A stretch of DNA of 9,000 nt from positions 1 through 9,000 of the IMG/VR virus record IMGVR_UViG_2778261420_000011; one strand, 5' to 3'. Positions 1 to 9,000 of the stretch are shown here, piece by piece. Position 1 is the stretch's first letter. Each line of letters opens with the position of its first letter. Under the pieces are notes generated by a model that was not told where the DNA came from, did no database searches, and saw only the letters and a list, made by a program, of their open reading frames with translations. Both the position numbers and the translations under genes were made by a program. Source of the DNA: a virus. Its lineage: Duplodnaviria; Heunggongvirae; Uroviricota; Caudoviricetes.

Positions 1-1082
1 CACTTAATCATATCCATCCAGGCAGATTCGGCAGTGACCCACACATTCATGTGTTTGGTAAAAAAATTCACCCGCGCAGAGACCTGCTCCTTCGCTTTTT
101 TCGCCAGACGACGCAGATCATCCCAGCGTTTACAGATGCCCAGGCCAGGATTCGCTTTCTGCCAGACCGTTTCATCAAACGGATCATCTCCCTCATCGAG
201 CGTGTAAATGATCGCAAAGTAGGAGTCGTCTTTTACCGCGCCCTCCACGTCGCTGTTATAGCCTCGCAATACCTTAATGGCGTAATCGCGCTGCTCGTAG
301 CAAATCCCTTCCTTGTTAAAGCCAGCCGTGGTGATGCCAAATAACAGAGACTGCAGACGGGCACCGGTTGCCGTTTCCAGAACGTCCCACACGTCACGGG
401 TTTTATGAGCATGCAGCTCATCAATAATGGCGCAGTGGATGTTCAGACCGTCCAGGTTGTTTGCATCCGAGGAAAGCGGTTCAAATTTTGATGCGCTCTG
501 CTCCTGGTAAATCGCCAGCTTGTTGAAATCAAACAACCGCCCGAGTGTCGACCGGGCTTTTCTGACCATATTTTTGGCGTCTTCAAACACAATTCTGGCC
601 TGGTCACGCGTGGTTGCGGCTGAATACACCTCAGCCCCGCCTTCACCATCTGCCCCCGTCATATACAGACCGATACCCGATGACAGGGTTGATTTTGCGT
701 TTTTACGGGCAACTTCGTTGTATGCTGTCCGGAACCGGCGCACCATCACCGGGCGTCCACTGCCATCGCTGCGCATGACAACTTCCCCGGTTTCTTCATT
801 CACCAGCGGAATGACAAAACCAAAAATATTAATGAGGATAAACACATGCCAGTCCATCAACTCAATGGGCTGACCTGCCAGCGCCCCTTTCACATGGGGT
901 ACAAATTTGTAGAAATTAAGGATGTGCTGTGCACGAGGTTCACTGAAATAAATCCCCCGCTCTTCGCCGTACTTCAGATCATCAAGAAAACGCTGGCAGG
1001 CCAGACGGACAAATTCGCCAGCAACAATTTCTCCTGCAACAACACGTTCGGCGTAGCGGATCCCGTCAGCCACTTTTGCCAT
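1..1082 (-). CDS. Phage terminase large subunit (TerL), 3'-truncated by the window edge
   Basis: Minus-strand frame checked codon by codon: open from ATG at 1082-1080 to position 3 (360 codons, no stop). Starts MAKVADGIRYAERVVAGEIVAGEFVRLACQRFLDDL and contains IHCAIIDELHAHKTRDVWDVLETATG, an acidic Walker-B-like motif typical of terminase ATPase domains. Start overlaps the terS stop (TGATG). Absent from the ORF track because it has no stop inside the window. Confidence 0.85.
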   Translation of the reverse strand, partial: MAKVADGIRYAERVVAGEIVAGEFVRLACQRFLDDLKYGEERGIYFSEPRAQHILNFYKFVPHVKGALAGQPIELMDWHVFILINIFGFVIPLVNEETGEVVMRSDGSGRPVMVRRFRTAYNEVARKNAKSTLSSGIGLYMTGADGEGGAEVYSAATTRDQARIVFEDAKNMVRKARSTLGRLFDFNKLAIYQEQSASKFEPLSSDANNLDGLNIHCAIIDELHAHKTRDVWDVLETATGARLQSLLFGITTAGFNKEGICYEQRDYAIKVLRGYNSDVEGAVKDDSYFAIIYTLDEGDDPFDETVWQKANPGLGICKRWDDLRRLAKKAKEQVSARVNFFTKHMNVWVTAESAWMDMIK

Positions 1083-1564
1083 CAGTCTCTCGCTTTTAAA
1101 AGCTCTGCCAGCGGATCAACATCATCCGGTCCGGCGGTATTTACTTTCGCCCGGCTTGCCGGTGACATACCAAACTCTGCAAGCATCGCCCGAATCCGCT
1201 TCCAGGCATCAGCCTTCATCGCAGCAGCCGGGTGTGCCTTGATCAGCACATCGCCATTCTGCGTTTCCGTGCGGTAGGTATAACCCTCAACATCGAGTAT
1301 TTCGCAGTGATGCCGGTATTCGGTGTAGGCTTCCACCAGTAACTCGAGCGCACGTGCATCGAGCTGAGAAATGATCCCTTCCGCATTCAGCTCTTCCGCC
1401 ATTCGCCTGAACCAGTACTTCCCCTGCGCCCCTAAATGTTGCGGAATTTTAGGGAGACCTTTTTCATCCTTTTTAGCGGTTTTTTTGGAGTCTTTAACTG
1501 GCCGCTTTGAGGGGTTACCTCGTATCAAATGCAGGCGTGGCGGGGTTTTCGGGGGTCCAGACAT
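1082..1564 (-). CDS. Phage terminase small subunit, P27 family
   Basis: 160 aa; N-terminus MSGPPKTPPRLHLIRGNPSKRP matches the conserved P27-family terminase small subunit signature as I recall it. ATG at 1564-1562; stop TGA 1084-1082 overlaps the terL start. Confidence 0.85.
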   Translation of the reverse strand: MSGPPKTPPRLHLIRGNPSKRPVKDSKKTAKKDEKGLPKIPQHLGAQGKYWFRRMAEELNAEGIISQLDARALELLVEAYTEYRHHCEILDVEGYTYRTETQNGDVLIKAHPAAAMKADAWKRIRAMLAEFGMSPASRAKVNTAGPDDVDPLAELLKARD

Positions 1565-1681
1565 AATCGGTTTTACCTATCAATCATTTAATCACATTCC
1601 AAAAAAAAGTTTTCGAACCTGCGGCGATGCGAGGAAAGGTCAGGCGGCGGTACTGAGCAGCCTGGGTTGCAGAGATTTGAT

Positions 1682-1696
1682 CCCCCCCCCTCCCCC
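1682..1696. repeat. Homopolymeric C9-T-C5 tract (G-run on the minus strand) in the terS upstream intergenic region
   Basis: Read directly: t-ccccccccc-t-ccccc at 1681-1696. Lies in the 230-bp non-coding gap upstream of terS, where a cos/packaging site is expected. Confidence 0.9.
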
Positions 1697-1794
1697 TTGA
1701 AGATGGCGGCAAAAAGCAGATACTGGCCACCCATCAGGATGCTCAGCATGGTGTATTCAGTTAATCTCAATAAATAAAAGATGGAGTCTAAGAA

Positions 1795-2310
1795 ATGGAT
1801 AAAACCAGAAAATATGACAGAGCCTTACAACTTGAAATCCTCAATGCCCTTATAGATTGCGCGCCTAACTCTTTAAACAAGGCACAGGAGCGAGACCTCA
1901 TTGAGAAGTTTGACAGTTACGATCACTTTGTGGCGTGCATGTTATACCTTGAAATGCATGGTCTCGTTTCCACCCCCTTCATACGCAGTGACACCATGGC
2001 TGGCGTTGAGTTTATCTTCTGTGCCCCTAACTGCTACATTACAGAAAAAGGAATTGATTTTCTTCTCGATGATGGCGGCTTAAGTGCGATCCTTAAAGTT
2101 CAGACCTTTCGGTTACACAGTGACACGATTGTTGCCCTTGAGGATATAATCCGTGTCGCAAATATATCTGAAGATCAGAAGAAGGGATTGATTTCAAAAC
2201 TCCGAGAGCTTCCGGGAGACGCCATAAAACATTTGACCCTACAGTTACTGACTCAGGGGGTTCTGAATCTGCCGAACGCACTTCGACTAATTCAAACAAC
2301 CCTCCAGTAG
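1795..2310 (+). CDS. Hypothetical protein, moron-like insertion; N-terminal region resembles a small winged-helix-like phage domain (possibly DUF2513-like)
   Basis: 171 aa ORF on the strand opposite all flanking late genes. GGAG Shine-Dalgarno at 1783-1786, 8 nt before ATG 1795. AT-rich (about 35% G+C in the first 60 nt by hand count) against GC-richer terminase flanks. Followed by a hairpin plus T-run at 2327-2364. Family assignment is from memory of motifs such as YLEMHGLV...ITEKGIDFL, not from a search. Confidence 0.55.
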   Translation: MDKTRKYDRALQLEILNALIDCAPNSLNKAQERDLIEKFDSYDHFVACMLYLEMHGLVSTPFIRSDTMAGVEFIFCAPNCYITEKGIDFLLDDGGLSAILKVQTFRLHSDTIVALEDIIRVANISEDQKKGLISKLRELPGDAIKHLTLQLLTQGVLNLPNALRLIQTTLQ

Positions 2311-2326
2311 GGCTAAACTCATCTGA

Positions 2327-2364
2327 GGGGCGAATTAACTCAAATTTGCCCCATCCCAGTTTTT
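2327..2364 (+). terminator. Candidate intrinsic terminator downstream of the 1795-2310 gene
   Basis: ggggcgaatt (2327-2336) pairs with aatttgcccc (2343-2352) with one G-U wobble, loop aactca; a T5 run follows at 2360-2364 but is separated from the stem by 7 nt, so it is a weak terminator. Confidence 0.3.
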
Positions 2365-2445
2365 CACTTAAAACAACCCAAAATCCCTCCCGGGTATCTG
2401 CATGAATATAGAAACTATTTTTATGCATTACAGCAGTGAATATTA

Positions 2446-2796
2446 TCATCGAATACGTTCCCTTGCTGTCTTCTCTCTGTGGCATTCCCTGCATAACGAC
2501 TCAAGATTGGAGTCATCATCGGTGCCGCCATGAGCTTTTGGAATCATGTGGTCTACAGTCCTGGCCTCAACGGCTCGTCCATTGCGCAGACAGTTCTTAC
2601 ACAGATGGTTATCACGCTTCAGTATACGCGCACGTATAACATCCCATTTCGAGCCATAGCCACGCTGGTGGCGACTCAGTCCGCGTTGATGCTGTACCCA
2701 TCCTTCACCACGATGTTTATCGCAGTAACCAGAACTGTCTGTGGTTGTACGTGCACATCCACGCTTACGGCAGGCGCGTGGGATTCGTGGGGGCAT
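2446..2796 (-). CDS. HNH endonuclease, terminase-associated (HK97 gp74-like)
   Basis: Cys/His-rich HNH core: CRKRGCARTTTDSSGYCDKH ... HLCKNCLRNGRAVEARTVDHMIPKAHGGTDDDSNLESLCRECH. Start placed at internal ATG 2796-2794 (MPPRIPRACRK), which has a GGAG 5 nt upstream; the track's longer start at 2895 has no ribosome-binding site. Confidence 0.8.
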   Translation of the reverse strand: MPPRIPRACRKRGCARTTTDSSGYCDKHRGEGWVQHQRGLSRHQRGYGSKWDVIRARILKRDNHLCKNCLRNGRAVEARTVDHMIPKAHGGTDDDSNLESLCRECHREKTARERIR

Positions 2797-2915
2797 ATGT
2801 ACTCCAATGAAGAAGCCACCGACATAGCCTCCTCCATTCGTCGTGAAACTATTTTCATCTACCCAGTAATGAACTCTTTGAAGAGTTGTAATCAATACAA
2901 CTCGCTAATGGAGAG

Positions 2916-2939
2916 GCTTGTCTCACACGTGAGACAAGC
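2916..2939. repeat. Perfect 11-bp inverted repeat with 2-nt centre (gcttgtctcac-ac-gtgagacaagc), followed on the plus strand by a T-rich stretch
   Basis: Read directly. Could be a protein-binding palindrome or a hairpin with a 4-nt loop and 10-bp stem. Located in the non-coding gap upstream of the HNH gene start. Confidence 0.6.
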
Positions 2940-3018
2940 TTCCTGTTTGATTTACTGGACACTATAGAAGGACAGAATGCCTTCATCACTCGAATAACAT
3001 CAATTAAGGAGGTTCAAC

Positions 3019-3141
3019 ATGTTTCATTTCACAAATCATCAGGCTGTAATTATGGCTGCATCAGCTTGTGCCACAGACCTTTTCCGCTTCACTTTGAGCC
3101 TGATTCATTTCTACCTGACCGGCTCGCCTCTATCTTTTTAA
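3019..3141 (+). CDS. Small hydrophobic ORF (40 aa), hypothetical
   Basis: Consensus Shine-Dalgarno AAGGAGG at 3006-3012, 6 nt before ATG 3019; translation MFHFTNHQAVIMAASACATDLFRFTLSLIHFYLTGSPLSF ends at TAA 3139-3141. Below the length cutoff of the ORF track. No homology known to me. Confidence 0.35.
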   Translation: MFHFTNHQAVIMAASACATDLFRFTLSLIHFYLTGSPLSF

Positions 3142-3321
3142 TCCCCGCTTTATCCAAATTGCATTGCCAGAATGCCGACAACAGACTGACATTCAAATCC
3201 TGACTACCTCCAATAGGCTGAGCATCCACCTATATAGTTTTAATTTTCATCAATCCATTTAACTATCGTTTAATTGTTGTCACATAGGATTCTGCCGTTT
3301 TTAACAATGCAGGATAATAAG

Positions 3322-3615
3322 ATGAAAAAAATGTTGTTTTCTGCCGCTCTGGCAATGCTTATTACAGGATGTGCTCAACAGACGTTTACTGTTGGAAACA
3401 AACCGACAGCAGTAACACCAAAGGAAACCATCACCCATCATTTCTTCGTTTCGGGAATTGGACAGGAGAAAACTGTTGATGCAGCCAAAATTTGTGGCGG
3501 CGCAGAAAATGTTGTTAAAACAGAAACCCAGCAAACATTCGTAAATGGATTTCTCGGTTTTATTACTTTAGGCATTTATACTCCACTGGAAGCGCGTGTG
3601 TATTGCTCACAATAA
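3322..3615 (+). CDS. bor: Bor lipoprotein (lambda Bor / Iss serum-resistance family)
   Basis: MKKMLFSAALAMLITGCAQQTFTVGNKPTAVTPKETITHHFFVSGIGQEKTVDAAKICGGAENVVKTETQQTFVNG...YTPLEARVYCSQ is near-identical to lambda Bor as I recall it; lipobox LITGC. Start set at ATG 3322 (AGGA at 3311-3314), not the track's upstream 3274. Confidence 0.9.
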   Translation: MKKMLFSAALAMLITGCAQQTFTVGNKPTAVTPKETITHHFFVSGIGQEKTVDAAKICGGAENVVKTETQQTFVNGFLGFITLGIYTPLEARVYCSQ

Positions 3616-3646
3616 TTGCATGAGTTGCCCATCGATATGGGCAGCT

Positions 3647-4108
3647 CTATCTGCACTGCTCATTAATATACTTCTGGGTTCCTTCCAGTTGTTTTTGCAT
3701 AGTGATCAGCCTCTCTCTGAGGGTGAAATAATCCCGTTCAGCGGTGTCTGCCAGTCGGGGGCTGGTTGCATTATCCACGCCGGAGGCGGTGGTGGCTTCA
3801 CGCACTGACTGACAGACTGCTTTGATGTGCAACCGACGACAACCAGCGGCAACATCAGCGCGCAGAGTTTCATTTTCAGCTTTCGCATTGGCTAATTCTC
3901 TCGAGTACTTTGCATCGAGTGCAGCAACATCACGCTGACGCTGCTGCATGTCAGCGATGGTGGCGATCGACTGCTTCAGCTCACTGACTTTTTTATCACG
4001 CTGTTCTTTGTAGGCGATGGCGTTATCACGGTAATGATTGACCGCCCACGACAGGCAGACGATGATGCAGATAACCAAAGCATAAATAATCGCGGCGACT
4101 CTGCTCAC
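3647..4108 (-). CDS. Rz spanin (inner-membrane subunit, i-spanin)
   Basis: Lambda-Rz-like sequence ([28 protein letters not shown] ... [13 protein letters not shown]). Start placed at GTG 4108-4106 to give a 153-aa product matching lambda Rz length; this GTG overlaps the endolysin stop TGA (4107-4105) and has a GGGGGAT SD upstream. The track's TTG start at 4123 is less likely. Confidence 0.88.
3706..3888 (-). CDS. Rz1 spanin (outer-membrane lipoprotein, o-spanin), embedded in Rz in the +1 frame
   Basis: 60 aa: [60 protein letters not shown], with lipobox VVVGC and a proline-rich core, near-identical to lambda Rz1 by recollection. Confidence 0.85.
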
Positions 4109-4638
4109 TGCTCTATCCCCCAACAGGCTAATGCGCTTTCCTGGTCACGACGAATAACCTGTCCATAGCAGTTATTTGAACGTATGCGGCAATCGCGCCC
4201 ACCATCTTTTATCCACCAGCGAATCGCCTCGCATGCGCCCTTACGATCACCGGCATTCAGCCGCTTATAAAACGTCGACGGGAAACACTTACCGGGGCCA
4301 ATGTTATAGGGACAGAATGACGCTATACCCGCTTTTTGTGGTTCGGTCAGTGGTACTTTAATATTGCGCTCCACCCATGCCAGCGCCTTATCACGCTCAA
4401 TGGCGTTGACCTGGTCGCATTTTTCCTTCGACAGTTTCATACCGGGAAAAACGGGTTTTCCATCCACCATCGTGGCACCCCGACAGATGGTCCAGATGCC
4501 GGACCCATCGCGGTATGCCGTTGTGTGGTTACCTTCTTTTTCATCCAGAAACTGGTCGAGAATATCAGGCGCGGGCGCACCGACGGCAATCAGTGCCAGA
4601 ACGGCAGCCGACAGGCCGTATCTGATTTTTGCGTTCAT
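4105..4638 (-). CDS. SAR endolysin (phage lysozyme, T4-lysozyme fold; RrrD/R21-like)
   Basis: 177 aa; N-terminal Gly/Ala-rich weakly hydrophobic segment [24 protein letters not shown] (signal-anchor-release type) followed by [22 protein letters not shown] lysozyme core. Closely resembles E. coli prophage lysozyme RrrD/RrrQ by recollection. Confidence 0.9.
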
Positions 4639-4701
4639 GGATATTTATCAGGATTTATCGGTTTCTGCCCACGGACAGGTTTATCTGTTCCGGTCAGTGA
4701 C

Positions 4702-5052
4702 TTAAGGTTGTGATTCCGGAGGAGTCTTCAGAGAACCAGTAATTCTTCCCGGTAGCTTTCCTTTGTAGGTTATCCATACATTCTGCGCCTCTAAAATTAC
4801 GGGGCGCTTTTCCGGCGACTGCTCATCCCCTTCACATAACCCGGCAGCAACATCCAGGAAGACCTGTCTGATGCTCCTTCTGGCTGCTGCCTCATAAAAC
4901 TCCAGCGCGGCACCTTCAACACGGTCCAGCGAGATGTCCAGGTCAAAAATTTCACCGTCAAAGCGTTTTTTGTCCCGTAACGCTAAAGTTACCGTAACTT
5001 TATTCTCAAAATTGCGGATCCCTTTCACAATCAGTTCATAGTTTTGAGTCAT
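4702..5052 (-). CDS. Hypothetical protein inserted between holin and endolysin (YdfR position of Qin prophage; possibly DUF1327)
   Basis: 116 aa ORF with ATG at 5052-5050 and a GGGGAGAG SD; stop is 63 bp upstream of the endolysin start. The family name is inferred from synteny with Qin (essQ-ydfR-rrrQ), not from recognised sequence. Confidence 0.65.
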   Translation of the reverse strand: MTQNYELIVKGIRNFENKVTVTLALRDKKRFDGEIFDLDISLDRVEGAALEFYEAAARRSIRQVFLDVAAGLCEGDEQSPEKRPVILEAQNVWITYKGKLPGRITGSLKTPPESQP

Positions 5053-5056
5053 TGAA

Positions 5057-5272
5057 TTACTCTCCCCGTGCAGCCTTACGCTTGTCTTCTCTGATTTTGA
5101 AGTACAGATTTGTCAGATAAGTCAGGAAGCCCAGAACCAGACTCCCCAGCACACCAATCGCAGCCCACTGTGACGGACTGACCTGATCAAGCCACTGTAA
5201 AAACCAGTAGCCAGCACTGCCTGCGGAGGTGCCATAGGCAATGCCCGTTGAAATTTTGTCCATGGATTTCAT
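5057..5272 (-). CDS. Class II holin, S21-type pinholin (EssD/EssQ-like) with dual-start motif
   Basis: 71 aa: [71 protein letters not shown]; the Met1-Lys-Ser-Met4 dual start gives antiholin/holin forms as in phage 21 S. GGAGGTGAGG SD upstream. Confidence 0.9.
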
Positions 5273-5330
5273 AGCCTCACCTCCGCAAATAACGGATGGC
5301 GTAGTTTTACACTGAGAAATGAAAGGGATT

Positions 5331-5356
5331 TGAAAAGAAAAGCCCGCAAAAGCGGG
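5331..5356 (-). terminator. Intrinsic terminator (minus strand) between the tRNA array and the holin gene
   Basis: Minus-strand hairpin gcccgc-tttt-gcgggc (plus 5341-5356) followed by ttttcttttc (plus 5331-5340). Confidence 0.6.
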
Positions 5357-5433
5357 CGAAACAATATATACAGTAAGGAAAGCACTCTATCCAACAAACC
5401 ACCCACAGTTAATCGGAATAAAAGCAGAGTGCT

Positions 5434-5505
5434 TATGAATGATCGCCTGCCCGAAGGTTAGTATTTCTGCACAGCAATTTTGCAAAAAAAAGCGATCATT
5501 CATAA
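5434..5505. repeat. Perfect 14-bp inverted repeat (ttatgaatgatcgc / gcgatcattcataa) flanking a 44-bp spacer
   Basis: Read directly: arms at 5434-5447 and 5492-5505. The spacer contains an A8 run and the small palindrome gcaaaattgc. Each arm contains a GATC site. Confidence 0.85.
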
Positions 5506-5512
5506 CTTAAAC

Positions 5513-5558
5513 GTCTTTCAGTCACTCCGGGATTTCCCATCATCGCAGACTGAAAGAC
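5513..5558. repeat. Perfect 11-bp inverted repeat (gtctttcagtc / gactgaaagac) with 24-nt spacer, immediately downstream of the tRNA array
   Basis: Read directly: arms at 5513-5523 and 5548-5558. Would form a stem-loop in the minus-strand transcript just 3' of tRNA-Gly. Confidence 0.8.
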
Positions 5559-5564
5559 TCTAAC

Positions 5565-5639
<75 letters not shown>

Positions 5640-5642
5640 ATA

Positions 5643-5718
<76 letters not shown>

Positions 5719-5720
5719 AC

Positions 5721-5797
5721 TGGACCGCCACCGGGGACTCGAACCTCGCACACTCAACTTAAAGGGTTGACGCTCTTTCCTGATGAACTGGTGACGG
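5721..5797 (-). tRNA. tRNA, anticodon UUU (Lys-like), non-canonical; possibly a pseudo-tRNA
   Basis: Reverse complement CCGTCACCAGTTCATCAGGAAAGAGCGTCAACCCTTTAAGTTGAGTGTGCGAGGTTCGAGTCCCCGGTGGCGGTCCA folds as a cloverleaf (acceptor with one G-U, D arm GTTC/GAGC, anticodon stem TCAAC/GTTGA, T loop TTCGAGT), but has C at position 33, A at position 8 and an A-C mismatch in the T stem. Confidence 0.5.
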
Positions 5798-5798
5798 T

Positions 5799-5874
5799 TG
5801 GTGGCCCTTGCTGGATTTGAACCAGCGACCTGGCGATTATGAGTCGCTCGCTCTCACCACTGAGCTAAAGGGCC
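5799..5874 (-). tRNA. tRNA with CAU anticodon, ileX/ileZ-like (tRNA-Ile2, lysidine type) rather than elongator Met
   Basis: Reverse complement GGCCCTTTAGCTCAGTGGTGAGAGCGAGCGACTCATAATCGCCAGGTCGCTGGTTCAAATCCAGCAAGGGCCACCA: perfect acceptor stem, anticodon loop CUCAUAA, encoded CCA. Resembles E. coli ileX by recollection; the Ile2 versus Met call cannot be made from sequence alone. Confidence 0.75.
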
Positions 5875-5883
5875 GGGCGCAGG

Positions 5884-5912
5884 ATAATAACGTTACGAAA
5901 TAAATGTTGCAA
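5884..5912 (-). promoter_or_regulatory. Candidate sigma70 promoter driving the tRNA array
   Basis: On the minus strand: TTGCAA (plus 5907-5912), 17-bp spacer, TATTAT (plus 5884-5889); the tRNA 5' end at 5874 lies about 10 nt downstream. Hexamer match and spacing only. Confidence 0.5.
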
Positions 5913-5993
5913 GCATTCAAGAATCACCTGGTTAAAAATTACCCTTACTTCCTCCACCAGCGCATTCACCATTTCTATCCGAGATAAGTGGCA

Positions 5994-6019
5994 CAAAAAA
6001 ACCCGCTTGTGGGCGGGTT
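5994..6019 (-). terminator. Intrinsic terminator (tR'-like) about 70 bp downstream of the Q-position gene; structure is bidirectional
   Basis: Hairpin acccgc-ttgtgg-gcgggt at 6001-6018, flanked by A7 (5994-6000) on one side and tttgtttgctttt on the other, so it gives a U-tract on either strand. Confidence 0.7.
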
Positions 6020-6084
6020 TTGTTTGCTTTTGCCATCACGTACAAAATCGGCAAAATATCAGATTTGCATGAAATATATGCCTT

Positions 6085-6774
6085 TCAATCTACTTTTGCA
6101 ACACTTTGCTTTGAAAATGCCGCCTTTTGTTTTGAACGTGTTCTCATTACAAACAATAAAGCCTCACTATCCAGTCGGTGAAAAATGTGTTTCATTGCAA
6201 CCCAGTGACGAGTAAATGTTTTGGACCAGTTTTTAGTTGTCACTCCCGCCAGTAATGCCAGCTCCTGGTATTCATAACCTTCCCCACCAAAAAGTTCTGC
6301 TTTTACTGCCTGCGCCGCCAGCCAGATTAATTTTTTCAGGCGTTCCTGCGTTTTCCCTGCAATTTTTCTGGTACCGGATTGAGTATTAAATTCATTCCAC
6401 GCCCACTGTGTTATCGCGATCTGATATTCCCAACAAATACTCCCGCTGTAACTCCACAACAACCAGGCTTTATGATGTTCTTCAAGAGACAGAACAGCCC
6501 GCCGCCACGATGATGTCGAAAACTCAACCGGACTGACCAGAGGAATTGACGTCCCCTTCGCCAGCGATTGTTTCCCCGGGATTGGTGGATTATCCCGCGT
6601 AATCATTTTTCCGGTCACTTCATCTCGGTACCGGATTTTTTTACGCCTGTAACGCCCTGTATCGAACATGGCATTCTCCTGCCAGGCTTCAAGCTGACCT
6701 TTTGTTGCCCCACTCAAATCAGCGGTGGCGATAATGAGCTGCTCACGCACAAACTGTAAATACTGGTTATTCAT
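6085..6774 (-). CDS. Putative late-gene antiterminator (Q-like by position; QuuQ-like), family not confirmed
   Basis: 229 aa from ATG 6774-6772, which abuts the rusA stop (ATGA overlap at 6771-6774). Sits immediately upstream of a terminator, the tRNAs and the lysis cassette, which is the canonical Q position. No Zn-finger or other motif I can recognise, so function is positional inference. Confidence 0.5.
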   Translation of the reverse strand: MNNQYLQFVREQLIIATADLSGATKGQLEAWQENAMFDTGRYRRKKIRYRDEVTGKMITRDNPPIPGKQSLAKGTSIPLVSPVEFSTSSWRRAVLSLEEHHKAWLLWSYSGSICWEYQIAITQWAWNEFNTQSGTRKIAGKTQERLKKLIWLAAQAVKAELFGGEGYEYQELALLAGVTTKNWSKTFTRHWVAMKHIFHRLDSEALLFVMRTRSKQKAAFSKQSVAKVD

Positions 6775-7130
6775 GCGCACTCCAGTTCTGTGATTTTTAT
6801 CCCCAGCCGCCCACCAGGAACGAGCTGACCGCGCACAATATTGATTTCATCAAACTGCTCGTCGTCTATAAGTAGTCCGGCATGCGTCAGCGCATCCAGT
6901 GGTGCCTTCAGGATATTGTCCAGGTCGCGGCGGCGCTTATCCGGTGGCTCTGCAATAATCTTTATCGCCAGCCTTCCGGACAGGTTTAATTTCAGCCGCT
7001 GCTGGCGAACAATAAGCGCCACAGCCCGGCGATAACGCTTTCCCTCCTCCGAGATAAAATATGTGCTGCCACGGCGTCGCCAGTAAGTATTCACCGTCGG
7101 TGGGTAAGGTAAAACCAAATCTATGGGCAT
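6771..7130 (-). CDS. rusA: Crossover junction endodeoxyribonuclease RusA (Holliday junction resolvase)
   Basis: 119 aa: MPIDLVLPYPPTVNTYWRRRG ... PDKRRRDLDNILKAPLDALTHAGLLIDDEQ ... GGRLGIKITELE shows the conserved RusA blocks including the acidic catalytic region DLDN...DAL...DD. ATG at 7130 with GAGGTG SD. Confidence 0.9.
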   Translation of the reverse strand: MPIDLVLPYPPTVNTYWRRRGSTYFISEEGKRYRRAVALIVRQQRLKLNLSGRLAIKIIAEPPDKRRRDLDNILKAPLDALTHAGLLIDDEQFDEINIVRGQLVPGGRLGIKITELECA

Positions 7131-7142
7131 CAGTCACCTCGT

Positions 7143-8192
7143 TTACCCGAGCACGCCAGTTGCAAAGGCGTGATCAAGAAAATGAAAAATTAACTCAACC
7201 TGGGACCCGTACTTTTTCTCAAACTCCAGCGGGTCAGCATGAAGTTCGTTGTGGTGCTCCCGGCACAACGGTAGTGTGAAAATATCGTGGGATTTTGTCC
7301 CCATACCGCCCTGCCCATGGCCAATCAGGTGATGCGGATCATCAGCTGGCTTTCCACAGCATGCACACGGCTGCGTCTTAACCCAGCGCGTGAACTTTTC
7401 ATTAACCCAGCGACGACGTTTAGGCCGTTTCATGAAAGATTCCGGGGACTCCGGATCAACGGCGATGCTTACTACCGTCTTTTCCTGTGGTGGATTTTGT
7501 TGCTGGTGGACGTGAGGTGGCAGCGCAATATTTTTTGTGCGCTGCTTCAGTATGCTGGGGGCTGTCTGTTCTCCCGGTACGATGTCGCTCTCACTATATA
7601 CGGAGCGGATTTTTTCCACCGGTAATCCCAGTGAACGACGCAATACAGACTCCGGAAGCGCATCAGCCACCTGATTGCAGACCGCCCACCAGGATAATTC
7701 GGCCAGCGATAACTCCCTCTCCTGCGTACCGCTGATTGCGTGACGGATGACGTCAATCATCCATGCTGACAGGTTTTGATGAGCAAGTTGCTCGAGTGAT
7801 TCGGATGTCTGGTCACGCAGCTGGTTGTCGCAGTGCCAGCACAACACCATTGCGCCGGTACCATAACGGTGAATGACGGTTTCGCTGTGATGATAATCGC
7901 CGTGTGGCCACTGGCAGGATTTAATATGGCGCAACAGCCAGTCAGACAATGCACCAGCACTACCAGCAGCACGAATTACCCGTGCATTACTGAAAAACGG
8001 CAGCAATGTTTTGTCTTCCACCAGCGGCTGGCGAACGGCAGGAACGACCCCGGACGGCAGATTACGCATGCTTTTCGGTTCCGGCTCCACCAGTACCCGG
8101 GTATTGTGGAATACCGGCATGGATTCACGGCCCGGCTTAACGACCACCAGCCCGAGTTCCGGTACCAGAACAGGTCGAAGTAATACCCGCAC
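7143..8192 (-). CDS. DUF968-family protein (YdfU-like) with C-terminal Cys/His HNH-like motif
   Basis: 349 aa; C-terminal CACCGKPADDPHHLIGHGQGGMGTKSHDIFTLPLCREHHNELH. Start codon is GTG at 8192-8190, preceded by a strong GGAGGT SD. Lies between rusA and a small upstream ORF, as ydfU does next to quuQ in Qin. Confidence 0.75.
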   Translation of the reverse strand: MRVLLRPVLVPELGLVVVKPGRESMPVFHNTRVLVEPEPKSMRNLPSGVVPAVRQPLVEDKTLLPFFSNARVIRAAGSAGALSDWLLRHIKSCQWPHGDYHHSETVIHRYGTGAMVLCWHCDNQLRDQTSESLEQLAHQNLSAWMIDVIRHAISGTQERELSLAELSWWAVCNQVADALPESVLRRSLGLPVEKIRSVYSESDIVPGEQTAPSILKQRTKNIALPPHVHQQQNPPQEKTVVSIAVDPESPESFMKRPKRRRWVNEKFTRWVKTQPCACCGKPADDPHHLIGHGQGGMGTKSHDIFTLPLCREHHNELHADPLEFEKKYGSQVELIFHFLDHAFATGVLG

Positions 8193-8193
8193 G

Positions 8194-8472
8194 TTACCTC
8201 CAGATGCGTTGCTGGAATGTGCGGGACGGACGCGGTGGGCGTTCGGAGTAAGGAAGCCTGACGGAGATTATCCAGTGACGATAATCGAGGCTGAGGGCTT
8301 TCTTAATCTCGTATCCGTATCTGCGGTAGCATTGAATTAGCCACTCGGCCTGTTCTTCAGTGCATGGGGCATGCTGGAACCAGTCAGATTTGAAAGTGCG
8401 GGAACGCCGCCCGTGCCTGCTGGCAAAGACGGCAGAATCATCAGAATTGTGTAATTTGGTATCGTGCGCCAT
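8194..8472 (-). CDS. Hypothetical small protein (Rem position of Qin prophage)
   Basis: 92 aa from internal ATG 8472-8470 (MAHDTKLHNSDD...). The track's longer start at 8553 would lie inside the upstream terminator U-tract. Stop TAA 8196-8194 is 1 nt from the GTG start of the DUF968 gene. Confidence 0.45.
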   Translation of the reverse strand: MAHDTKLHNSDDSAVFASRHGRRSRTFKSDWFQHAPCTEEQAEWLIQCYRRYGYEIKKALSLDYRHWIISVRLPYSERPPRPSRTFQQRIWR

Positions 8473-8540
8473 CGGTTGTCTCTGCTGGCGCAGCAGGTGC
8501 CAGTTGTTCAGGCTGGCGTGCGAATTGTAAACCAGAATGC

Positions 8541-8571
8541 CAGGAAAAAACAAAACCCGCCGAAGCGGGTT
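8541..8571 (-). terminator. Intrinsic terminator downstream of hok (minus strand)
   Basis: Minus-strand hairpin acccgc-ttcg-gcgggt (plus 8555-8570) followed by tttgttttttcctg (plus 8541-8554). Confidence 0.7.
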
Positions 8572-8610
8572 AAGTGCGGGTGCGTTGAGGATGCCTGACT
8601 CATCAGAGGT

Positions 8611-8632
8611 GGCGAGGGATTTCTCCCTCGCC
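8611..8632 (-). other. Perfect 8-bp stem-loop (ggcgaggg-atttct-ccctcgcc) in the hok 3' untranslated region
   Basis: Read directly, just 3' of the hok stop at 8640. Hok-family mRNAs carry structured 3' ends involved in fold-back inhibition; assigning that role here is inference. Confidence 0.5.
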
Positions 8633-8639
8633 TGGTCTC

Positions 8640-8795
8640 TTACTCCTCAGGTTCGTAAGCTGTGAAGACAGCGACCTCCGTCTGGCCGGTTCGGATTCGT
8701 ACCTCGCAGAGGTCTTTCCTCGTTACCAGTGCCGTCACTATGACGGTTAAACAGATGACGATCAGGGCGATTAACATCGCCTTTTGCTGCTTCAT
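8640..8795 (-). CDS. hokD: Hok/Gef-family type I toxin (HokD/RelF-like), 51 aa
   Basis: MKQQKAMLIALIVICLTVIVTALVTRKDLCEVRIRTGQTEVAVFTAYEPEE matches E. coli HokD as I recall it. AAGGAG SD 9 nt upstream of ATG 8795. The track's 70-aa version (start 8852) is an in-frame upstream extension. Confidence 0.85.
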   Translation of the reverse strand: MKQQKAMLIALIVICLTVIVTALVTRKDLCEVRIRTGQTEVAVFTAYEPEE

Positions 8796-9000
8796 AGCCT
8801 GCTTCTCCTTGCCTTTCGGCACGTAAGAGGCTAACCTAGATTTGCCGTTCATAGATTGAGCCTCAGATTAATGTTAAGCGTCTTGCAGGACGCGTAATGT
8901 TAACTGGGGCTTTTCTCTATCTGCCTTTGGTGTTCATGCCTGAGACAGATAGCCTCAAGCACCCGCAGTAATTTTACATAAAGGTTATGGTTCCTTTCAA

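Follow-up and report, generated by a model that had tools for sequence, protein, structure and literature searches.

A candidate promoter-trap cassette in enterobacterial prophages: an unannotated small gene behind promoter sequences of the T7 and SP6 phage groups

The DNA analysed here comprises positions 1 to 9,000 of the IMG/VR virus record IMGVR_UViG_2778261420_000011 (this whole stretch of 9,000 nucleotides is called the window hereafter), which represents a lambdoid/HK97-like prophage with its late genes on the minus strand. Between its HNH gene (2446–2796, minus strand; Pfam HNH) and its bor/iss gene (3322–3615, plus strand) lies a cassette at 2893–3141, in which a promoter-like site of the T7 group (P1), a hairpin, a promoter sequence of the SP6 group (P2) and an unannotated 40-codon open reading frame (ORF) follow one another on the plus strand. 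We consider it rather probable, judging from the sequence, that this cassette stays silent in the prophage until the own RNA polymerase of an invading phage transcribes it, and that the encoded peptide, probably membrane-active, then aborts or excludes the infection. More broadly, and with about even confidence, we propose that such promoter-trap immune cassettes are widespread and unannotated in enterobacterial prophages, where stacked promoters, each for one Autographiviridae lineage of the host genus (T7-, SP6-, K11- or KP34-like), would form arrays that sense the invader's polymerase and answer with a membrane-active suicide or exclusion peptide of 36–41 amino acids (aa); these cassettes would be modular and may be updated by phage recombination.

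The small ORF, given by the ORF listing and by its homologues, occupies 3019–3141 on the plus strand (ATG at 3019–3021, TAA at 3139–3141) and encodes the payload peptide MFHFTNHQAVIMAASACATDLFRFTLSLIHFYLTGSPLSF. The Shine-Dalgarno (SD) sequence AAGGAGG is located at 3006–3012 on the same strand and is separated from the start codon by the six nucleotides TTCAAC (3013–3018). An earlier, sequence-only reading of the window had pointed out exactly this arrangement, had considered it unlikely to stand before an open frame by chance, and had named conservation and synonymous substitution among related prophages as one of the checks. The comparison bears it out, since the start, the frame and the position of the stop are intact in all 26 distinct 123-nt alleles from E. 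coli and Shigella and also in the Klebsiella homologues, with the stop codon itself varying from TAA to TGA at an unchanged position, and the SD is kept in all alleles except one (AAGGAAG in L087, which also has a P-to-L change). The homologues of the ORF fall into 16 protein clusters. In codons 21–40, the distinct changes are 8 synonymous versus 3 non-synonymous in the plus frame, where 26% synonymous changes are expected, while the same changes read in the antisense frame of the o-spanin (Rz1) gene are 1 synonymous versus 10 non-synonymous. Purifying selection thus acts on the plus frame and not on the antisense frame. The C-terminal 20 residues (LFRFTLSLIHFYLTGSPLSF) are essentially invariant, the DNA changes there being almost all synonymous, and more synonymous differences (CTA, TCT and TTA) come from the Klebsiella alleles. 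Thus, the small ORF is very probably a genuine, translated gene that has escaped annotation. An in-frame ATG upstream of it, at 2977, is closed by TAA at 2995–2997 in the window, and in many alleles TCA replaces this TAA, which opens an extended frame of 54 aa (MPSSLESHQLRRFN...); the extension is probably unused because the ATG at 2977 has no SD.

Of 5,426 complete E. coli genomes, 632 contain the 241-base cassette, and RefSeq annotates it in none of them. In the window, the HNH start and bor are 526 bases apart, with no RefSeq-annotated feature in between either, and one GenBank phage record lists the small ORF as a hypothetical protein. Shigella phage SfIV has the cassette as well, at 84% DNA identity and with no bor, and its homologues occur in Klebsiella prophages.

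The informative upstream part (2893–2984) lies just outside the interval covered by the sequence-only reading. A sensitive blastn search with the intergenic region unexpectedly matched K1E-like podophages at 2920–2978. Within this match, positions 2950–2970 of the plus strand read ATTTACTGGACACTATAGAAG, that is, ATTTACTGGACACTATA followed by GAAG from a predicted +1 at 2967, and all 21 bases agree with an SP6-group promoter of the Vectrevirus/K1E type (P2). In Vectrevirus ACG-C91, the sequence ATTTAC[TC]GGACACTATAGAAG stands at seven intergenic places on the plus strand, four of which are identical to the window, so that 2950–2970 matches the repeated intergenic consensus of the Vectrevirus/K1E type from −17 to +4. 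SP6 has the classical ATTTAGGTGACACTATAGAAG at equivalent places. The 21-mer occurs once in the window, and no match was found in 200 shuffles even when three mismatches were allowed. In IMG/VR, exact copies of it are limited to 65 prophage cassettes and 45 sites in Vectrevirus-like contigs, the latter including the promoter upstream of the major capsid gene. In 64 of the 65 cassettes the same leader and a member of the same ORF family come next, and in the remaining one (L292) the cassette is disrupted right after the promoter. The orientation and the distance are those of a promoter for the small gene, because the predicted +1 is on the same strand and 52 nt upstream of the ATG at 3019. The predicted 5' untranslated region of the P2 transcript (2967–3018, plus strand) is accordingly 52 nt long, starts with the stem-loop GAAGG-ACAGAAUG-CCUUC (2967–2984) in both the minimum free energy (MFE) and the centroid folds, continues with a conserved leader and ends in TTAAGGAGGTT. 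The layout is the same as in the leaders of the Vectrevirus capsid genes, namely a 5' stem-loop, a spacer of about 25 nt and TAAGGAGGT. Moreover, in SfIV-type cassettes ATTTAGGTGACACTTTAGAAG, which is the SP6 consensus with one mismatch, stands before the same ORF.

Further upstream, positions 2893–2915 on the plus strand read CAATACAACTCGCTAATGGAGAG, that is, CAATACAACTCGCTAAT followed by GGAGAG with a predicted +1 at 2910, and resemble a T7-group promoter of the Berlinvirus type (P1). The Berlinvirus CarlSpitteler (L241) has 14 sites of the form AATACGACTCACTA[A/T]TGGGAGAG, and its site at 16895 (gcaatcAATACAACTCACTAATGG) is identical to the window at 18 of the 19 positions from −17 to +2. 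The P1 allele of SfIV (AATACGACTCACTAATGGGGAGG) matched 316 T7-like phage records, at about 6–11 places each among the records listed, and other P1 alleles (those of SfIV and L173) are one mismatch away from genuine phage sites. Between P1 and P2, at 2913–2942 on the plus strand, there is a hairpin (13-bp stem, 4-nt loop) with a T-rich stretch behind it. P1 transcripts would carry it as a 5' stem-loop, and in its form it is similar to an intrinsic terminator that host polymerase coming from upstream would meet. Over 11 alleles of the hairpin, 94% of the cells pair and three pairs are changed on both sides, a level reached by none of 500 shuffles, with slid controls at 31–49%. Podophages have the same core hairpins: ACG-C91 carries GTCTCACACGTGAGAC, and both SP6 and K61PH164C1 carry GTCCAACACGTTGGAC. 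In other words, the two main versions in the cassettes (2920–2935 in the window) are each identical to hairpins of different podophages (ACG-C91 at 2501–2520; SP6, L183; and L184). An in-place origin of the compensatory changes is weakened, since both stem versions pre-exist in podophages. This suggests, as far as sequence identity goes, that the hairpin-promoter unit has been exchanged repeatedly between prophage cassettes and virulent phages. The nucleotide diversity (pi) is 0.018 in the SD, 0.038 in the leader and 0.038 in P1, which is the least variable upstream segment, versus about 0.12 in the flanks; P1, the leader, the SD and codons 21–40 of the ORF are thus 3- to 6-fold less diverse than the flanking DNA.

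The cassettes of Klebsiella prophages have the same architecture with other parts. Their order is hairpin, T7-like site, hairpin again, AATAGTGGCGAGTATAGAAC, TTAATGTTACACGAGTAGGAAC and a fourth element, AAGTTACACAATAGAA. There are 13 sites of AATAGTGGCGAGTATAGAAC in the SP6-like Klebsiella phage K61PH164C1 (Molineuxvirinae), the cassette sequence TTAATGTTACACGAGTAGGA has four sites in KP34, and TTAATGTTACACGAGTAGGAAC matches four sites TTAATGTTACAGGAGTAGGA in this Drulisvirus, one of them directly 3' of its RNA polymerase gene. KP32 was considered as the source of the T7-like element and rejected, its promoter being ATTAGGGCACACTATAGGGAG, which does not match. Behind the stack follows either a homologue of the peptide (MLKISLL...LSLIHFYLTGSPLSF) or a wholly different peptide that is equally long. 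Anchoring a metagenome scan on the o-spanin tail yielded 61 unique cassettes with 36 distinct peptides, which are all 36–41 aa long, represent four or more mutually unrelated families of hydrophobic sequence and each have a strong SD. In the upstream region, promoter-core motifs average 2.26 per 250 nt on the strand of the ORF (at least one in 58 of the 61 cassettes) and 0.15 on the opposite strand, with 0 downstream, where only the strand and position controls are informative since the motif expression was written after viewing the data. On comparison of these sequences, the promoter type tracks the phages of each host genus (SP6 type in SfIV, Klebsiella-phage types in Klebsiella), and the peptide payloads are interchangeable in the slot. 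In addition, several promoter-like classes with no phage assigned are seen in Klebsiella and metagenome cassettes upstream of small ORFs, namely ATTAAGACTCACTATTAGGAAGG, TAATGCGACTCACTATAGAGAGG (T7-like), AATTAGGTAGCACTATAGGGAGG (K11/KP32-like) and again AAGTTACACAATAGAA (L005 at 2255–2285; L195 at 4188–4208; L370, L373, L355, L388 and L374).

The slot itself is constant. The cassette is always located at the distal end of the lysis cassette, usually before HNH and terminase, in HK97/SfIV-like and lambdoid prophages, and is oriented against the late transcription of the prophage. In SfV, which has no cassette, the Rz1 stop is 27 nt from the HNH start, and SfIV has a cassette of about 290 nt at this place. 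Like a moron, the cassette therefore appears as an insertion between genes that are adjacent in relatives; as for the sigma-70 promoter and downstream terminator that a moron would have of its own, only the hairpin with its T-tract was recognized, and it lies upstream of the ORF. The C-terminal remnant of a truncated SfIV-type o-spanin is found at 3092–3229 on the minus strand, where it overlaps the small ORF at its 3' end and adjoins the junction with lambda-like sequence at about 3207; by BLASTP, it shares 23 of 29 residues with SfIV Rz1 (residues 74–102). By its sequence, this remnant is a recombination scar from the exchange of SfIV-type and lambda-type lysis/bor modules and marks the original lysis-end position of the cassette.

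The peptide had been described as hydrophobic, and as a possible small membrane protein, type I toxin-like peptide or leader peptide. This holds in part. The best 19-residue Kyte-Doolittle window is 1.40 in the allele of the window, below the usual membrane-helix cut-off of 1.6, and 1.83 in the Klebsiella homologue; the unrelated peptides in the same slot reach 1.5–2.3, with family medians of 1.5–2.1 (about 2.0–2.1 in payload families other than this one). The product is probably a small hydrophobic, toxin-like peptide, and the type I toxin-antitoxin and bor leader readings are not supported (see below). The peptide has no similarity to Hok or any Pfam family, and four payload peptides gave no profile match in Pfam, PHROGs or PADLOC. 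No homologue of the peptide was found in Autographiviridae. A full-text literature search, which included the peptide motif, returned no description of the cassette or the peptide, which is not proof of absence because most papers in subscription journals lie outside its coverage.

Considering these data together, we assume the following course of events. In the lysogen the cassette would be silent, as expected from a consensus ribosome-binding site with no detected host promoter, and the upstream hairpin with its T-rich tail would possibly block read-through. Upon infection by a T7-like or SP6-like phage, the polymerase of the invader would transcribe the cassette from P1 or P2 at the strength of a late gene; strong expression is expected since the preceding promoters are of types read only by Autographiviridae polymerases. 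The peptide would then be made in bulk and, being probably membrane-active, would cause the infection to be aborted or excluded, by which the lysogen population and the prophage would be protected. Small hydrophobic payloads that are interchangeable between unrelated families would suit an effector that damages membranes generically, in the manner of type I toxins or holins. In the lytic cycle of the prophage, the gene would be suppressed by the prophage's late transcription, which converges on it. Furthermore, the promoter sensors would be renewed through recombination with infecting phages, as suggested by hairpin and promoter variants that are identical to those of different podophages.

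Several observations weigh against this proposal. The functional part of it, that is, expression, toxicity and protection, is what we infer from sequence. The peptides of E. coli and SfIV are moderately hydrophobic, with best windows of 1.40 and 0.90, respectively, and purifying selection is not seen in the N-terminal half, where codons 2–20 show 3 synonymous versus 26 non-synonymous changes and evolve fast. P2 is no more conserved than the background (pi 0.097, with 9 of its 21 sites variable). The P2 variants ATTTAATGGACACTATAGAGG and the SfIV-type TTTAGGTGACACTTTAGAAG (T at −3) have no exact podophage counterpart in IMG/VR, where they match only prophage cassettes or scattered single sites, and a scan of IMG/VR with the Klebsiella T7-like element TTAAGACTCACTATTAGGAAG found no exact podophage counterpart either; these elements may have decayed rather than been retargeted. 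One more P2 variant, ...GACAGTATAGGAG, was seen and left out of the IMG/VR scans. P1 of the window has G for A at −6 and a shortened start-site G-run (GGAGAG versus GGGAGA of the consensus AATACGACTCACTA[A/T]TGGGAGA), and from its sequence this allele may be weakened by the change at −6. Recombination with podophages could have delivered the hairpin and the promoter together, which explains their presence and not their maintenance. The after-the-fact wording of the promoter-core motif belongs here as well.

It is possible, though unlikely, that the cassette does respond to the polymerase of the invader and serves something other than abortive infection, namely a specific inhibition of a podophage protein by the peptide, an aid for the prophage to escape or to lyse the cell, or the strong phage-polymerase transcription itself, which would enter bor or run antisense through lysis and late genes. 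The same P1 and P2 promoter evidence applies to such roles, the transcripts would run into bor here and antisense into Rz, R and S, and the fast N-terminal half (3 versus 26) could be the trace of an arms race against some target in the phage. However, the sequence downstream differs by context (bor, SfIV-type Rz1/Rz or lambda-type Rz), the constant element being the unit of SD and peptide, and four or more unrelated hydrophobic families suit generic membrane toxicity better than a specific inhibitor.

It is quite improbable that the cassette is a neutral relic, in which regulatory DNA of a podophage (hairpin, promoter and leader) was captured by recombination and persists in the prophage together with a fortuitous ORF, serving no function there. 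The hairpin cores and promoters identical to podophage ones would agree with this, as would the variation of P2, which equals that of the flanking DNA, and the alleles that look decayed. Two of the latter are examples of decay, the L087 allele with its SD and P-to-L changes and the truncated L292 (IMG/VR contig 2778261354_000001, at about 6905 on the minus strand), whose cassette is broken directly after +4 of the promoter (..TATAGAAGtaagcgtgc..) so that the promoter no longer faces the ORF. A relic, however, would not be expected to show mostly synonymous changes in the C-terminal half and a 3- to 6-fold lower diversity than the flanks in SD, leader and P1, nor to recur in Klebsiella with genus-appropriate promoters and different peptides of the same size, and the peptide has no homologue in podophages.

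The sequence-only reading, in which the ORF belongs to the bor accessory region and host polymerase expresses from it a small membrane protein, type I toxin or leader peptide in the lysogen, is in our opinion very unlikely. The strong SD and the conserved ORF agree with it, bor follows on the same strand after 180 nt, and the peptide is moderately hydrophobic. In the MFE fold of the predicted transcript, moreover, the SD (3008–3013) pairs with a CCUC stretch at about 3126–3131 near the 3' end of the ORF, and unrelated Klebsiella payloads have CCTC or TCCT near their 3' ends as well; such pairing could, according to the fold model, be a fold-back inhibition of translation as in hok mRNA. The overall z-score of the fold in the P2 transcript is −0.25, which is not significant, and we rejected the pairing as statistically unsupported. 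As to a type I toxin-antitoxin system, no sigma-70-like promoter was detected on either strand in 2300–3800, where shuffled sequence averages 2.7, an Rfam scan of the same interval at a permissive threshold gave only noise, and no sign of an antisense RNA gene was seen around the small ORF. The promoters found before the ORF are only of the T7-group and SP6-group phage polymerase types, which speaks against the claimed plus-strand expression in the lysogen. A leader peptide or attenuator of bor was discarded because SfIV, Klebsiella prophages and many E. coli prophages, including ones where Rz directly adjoins it, have the cassette and no bor, while bor loci of the lambda type have no cassette and homology to lambda begins only at about 3207; hence the linkage to a bor-proximal accessory region is not obligatory. 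A bona fide type I toxin gene of the Hok/Gef family is present elsewhere in the same prophage, at 8640–8852 on the minus strand (Pfam PF01848, E = 3e-23).

Finally, it is most improbable that the ORF is untranslated and that 3079–3141 is conserved as an RNA or DNA element or as antisense coding sequence for the o-spanin tail, given that, although the intact o-spanin genes of SfIV and Klebsiella phages end inside this stretch and thus within the small ORF, the changes favour the plus frame (8 versus 3) over the o-spanin frame (1 versus 10), the stretch is conserved in the window where the o-spanin is only a truncated remnant, the stop changes from TAA to TGA at an unchanged position, and the o-spanin tail changes with each peptide payload.

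The surroundings of the cassette are those of a prophage late region. The minus strand carries Q (6085–6780), four transfer RNA (tRNA) genes (5565–5874), the holin (5057–5272), the endolysin (4105–4638), Rz (3647–4123) and the small terminase (1082–1564), and the plus strand, opposite to these late genes, bears bor/iss and the small ORF. The tRNA genes (Gly-TCC, Thr-TGT, Lys-TTT and Met-CAT) are clustered in the prophage's late leader, with the Q antiterminator on one side and the holin on the other. Upstream of RusA and Q, positions 7143–8192 of the minus strand encode a DUF968 protein of 349 aa whose C-terminal part has a weak HNHc-like match. Between the small terminase and HNH, and opposing late transcription, there is a 171-aa ORF at 1795–2310 on the plus strand, which belongs to PHROG 3983 (unknown function) and has no Pfam match; it is accompanied on the minus strand by the stretch 2093–2494 and a terminator-like hairpin at 2395–2376. 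The 171-aa ORF is a second moron-like insertion, as the gap between terS and HNH is only about 147 nt in strain M217 (L001), and it is situated near the expected cos position of HK97-like phages.

The cassette shares features with several known systems and differs from each of them. With the late (class III) units of T7/SP6-type phages, such as T7 phi10 and the Vectrevirus capsid unit, it has in common the promoter (21 of 21 bases for the Vectrevirus type), the leader with a 5' stem-loop, the ribosome-binding site of the TAAGGAGGT type and the intergenic hairpins; but it resides in a temperate siphovirus prophage that has no such polymerase, its specificities are stacked, and its 40-aa peptide has no homologue in Autographiviridae. 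Type I toxins (hok/sok, ldr, tisB and ibs) are likewise hydrophobic peptides of 30–50 aa that are silenced in healthy cells and are plausibly lethal to the membrane, as the cassette peptide would be, whereas neither an antisense antitoxin nor a host promoter was detected for the cassette, and the proposed trigger is the transcription by the invader rather than the decay of an antitoxin. Pecota and Wood reportedly found in 1996 that hok/sok excludes T4 after host transcription is shut off. An engineered phage-triggered suicide system of Lactococcus, said to have been built by Djordjevic, Klaenhammer and colleagues in 1997, fused a phage-inducible promoter to a lethal gene, and in the logic of pET vectors a T7 promoter is silent when T7 polymerase is absent. 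As proposed for the cassette, the lethal payload in such a design stands behind a promoter that is activated only by the transcription machinery of the infecting phage; these systems are, however, man-made, while the cassette is natural, widespread, multi-promoter and prophage-borne. Prophage morons and exclusion genes (lambda bor, lom and rexAB; P22 sieA/sieB) are also inserted between conserved genes against late transcription and probably serve the lysogen, but a moron has a sigma-70 promoter and a terminator of its own, with expression from the prophage, whereas no host promoter was found for the cassette and its hairpin is upstream. In helper-activated satellites and islands (P4, PICIs and PLE) and in abiD1, which is induced by a phage protein, the expression of the resident element also depends on a product of the infecting phage; the activators there are proteins or anti-repressors that work with host polymerase, while the DNA of the cassette mimics the cis-acting promoter of the invader's polymerase. 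To our knowledge, no natural resident element uses the promoter of an invader's polymerase as its switch. The parts are familiar, namely late promoters of the SP6 and T7 groups and small hydrophobic toxins, whereas their combination is not.

In known immune systems, the signal is a phage protein, a nucleic-acid pattern or the shut-off of the host. If our proposal is true, the cassette would represent a new sensing principle in bacterial immunity, in which a resident element copies the promoter of the invader and leaves it to the invader's polymerase to produce the countermeasure. The textbook picture of E. coli chromosomes as free of promoters for T7-type polymerases would likewise need qualification, because about 12% of the complete genomes hold the cassette, and several families of small membrane peptides that genome annotation misses at present would be added. 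The matter bears on phage therapy, in which K1E/K1-5-like, SP6-like, KP34-like and T7-like phages are favoured against E. coli and Klebsiella. Cassettes of this kind, if they act as proposed, could explain strain-specific failures of therapeutic phages, and they predict selection on the promoter and polymerase specificity of the phages.

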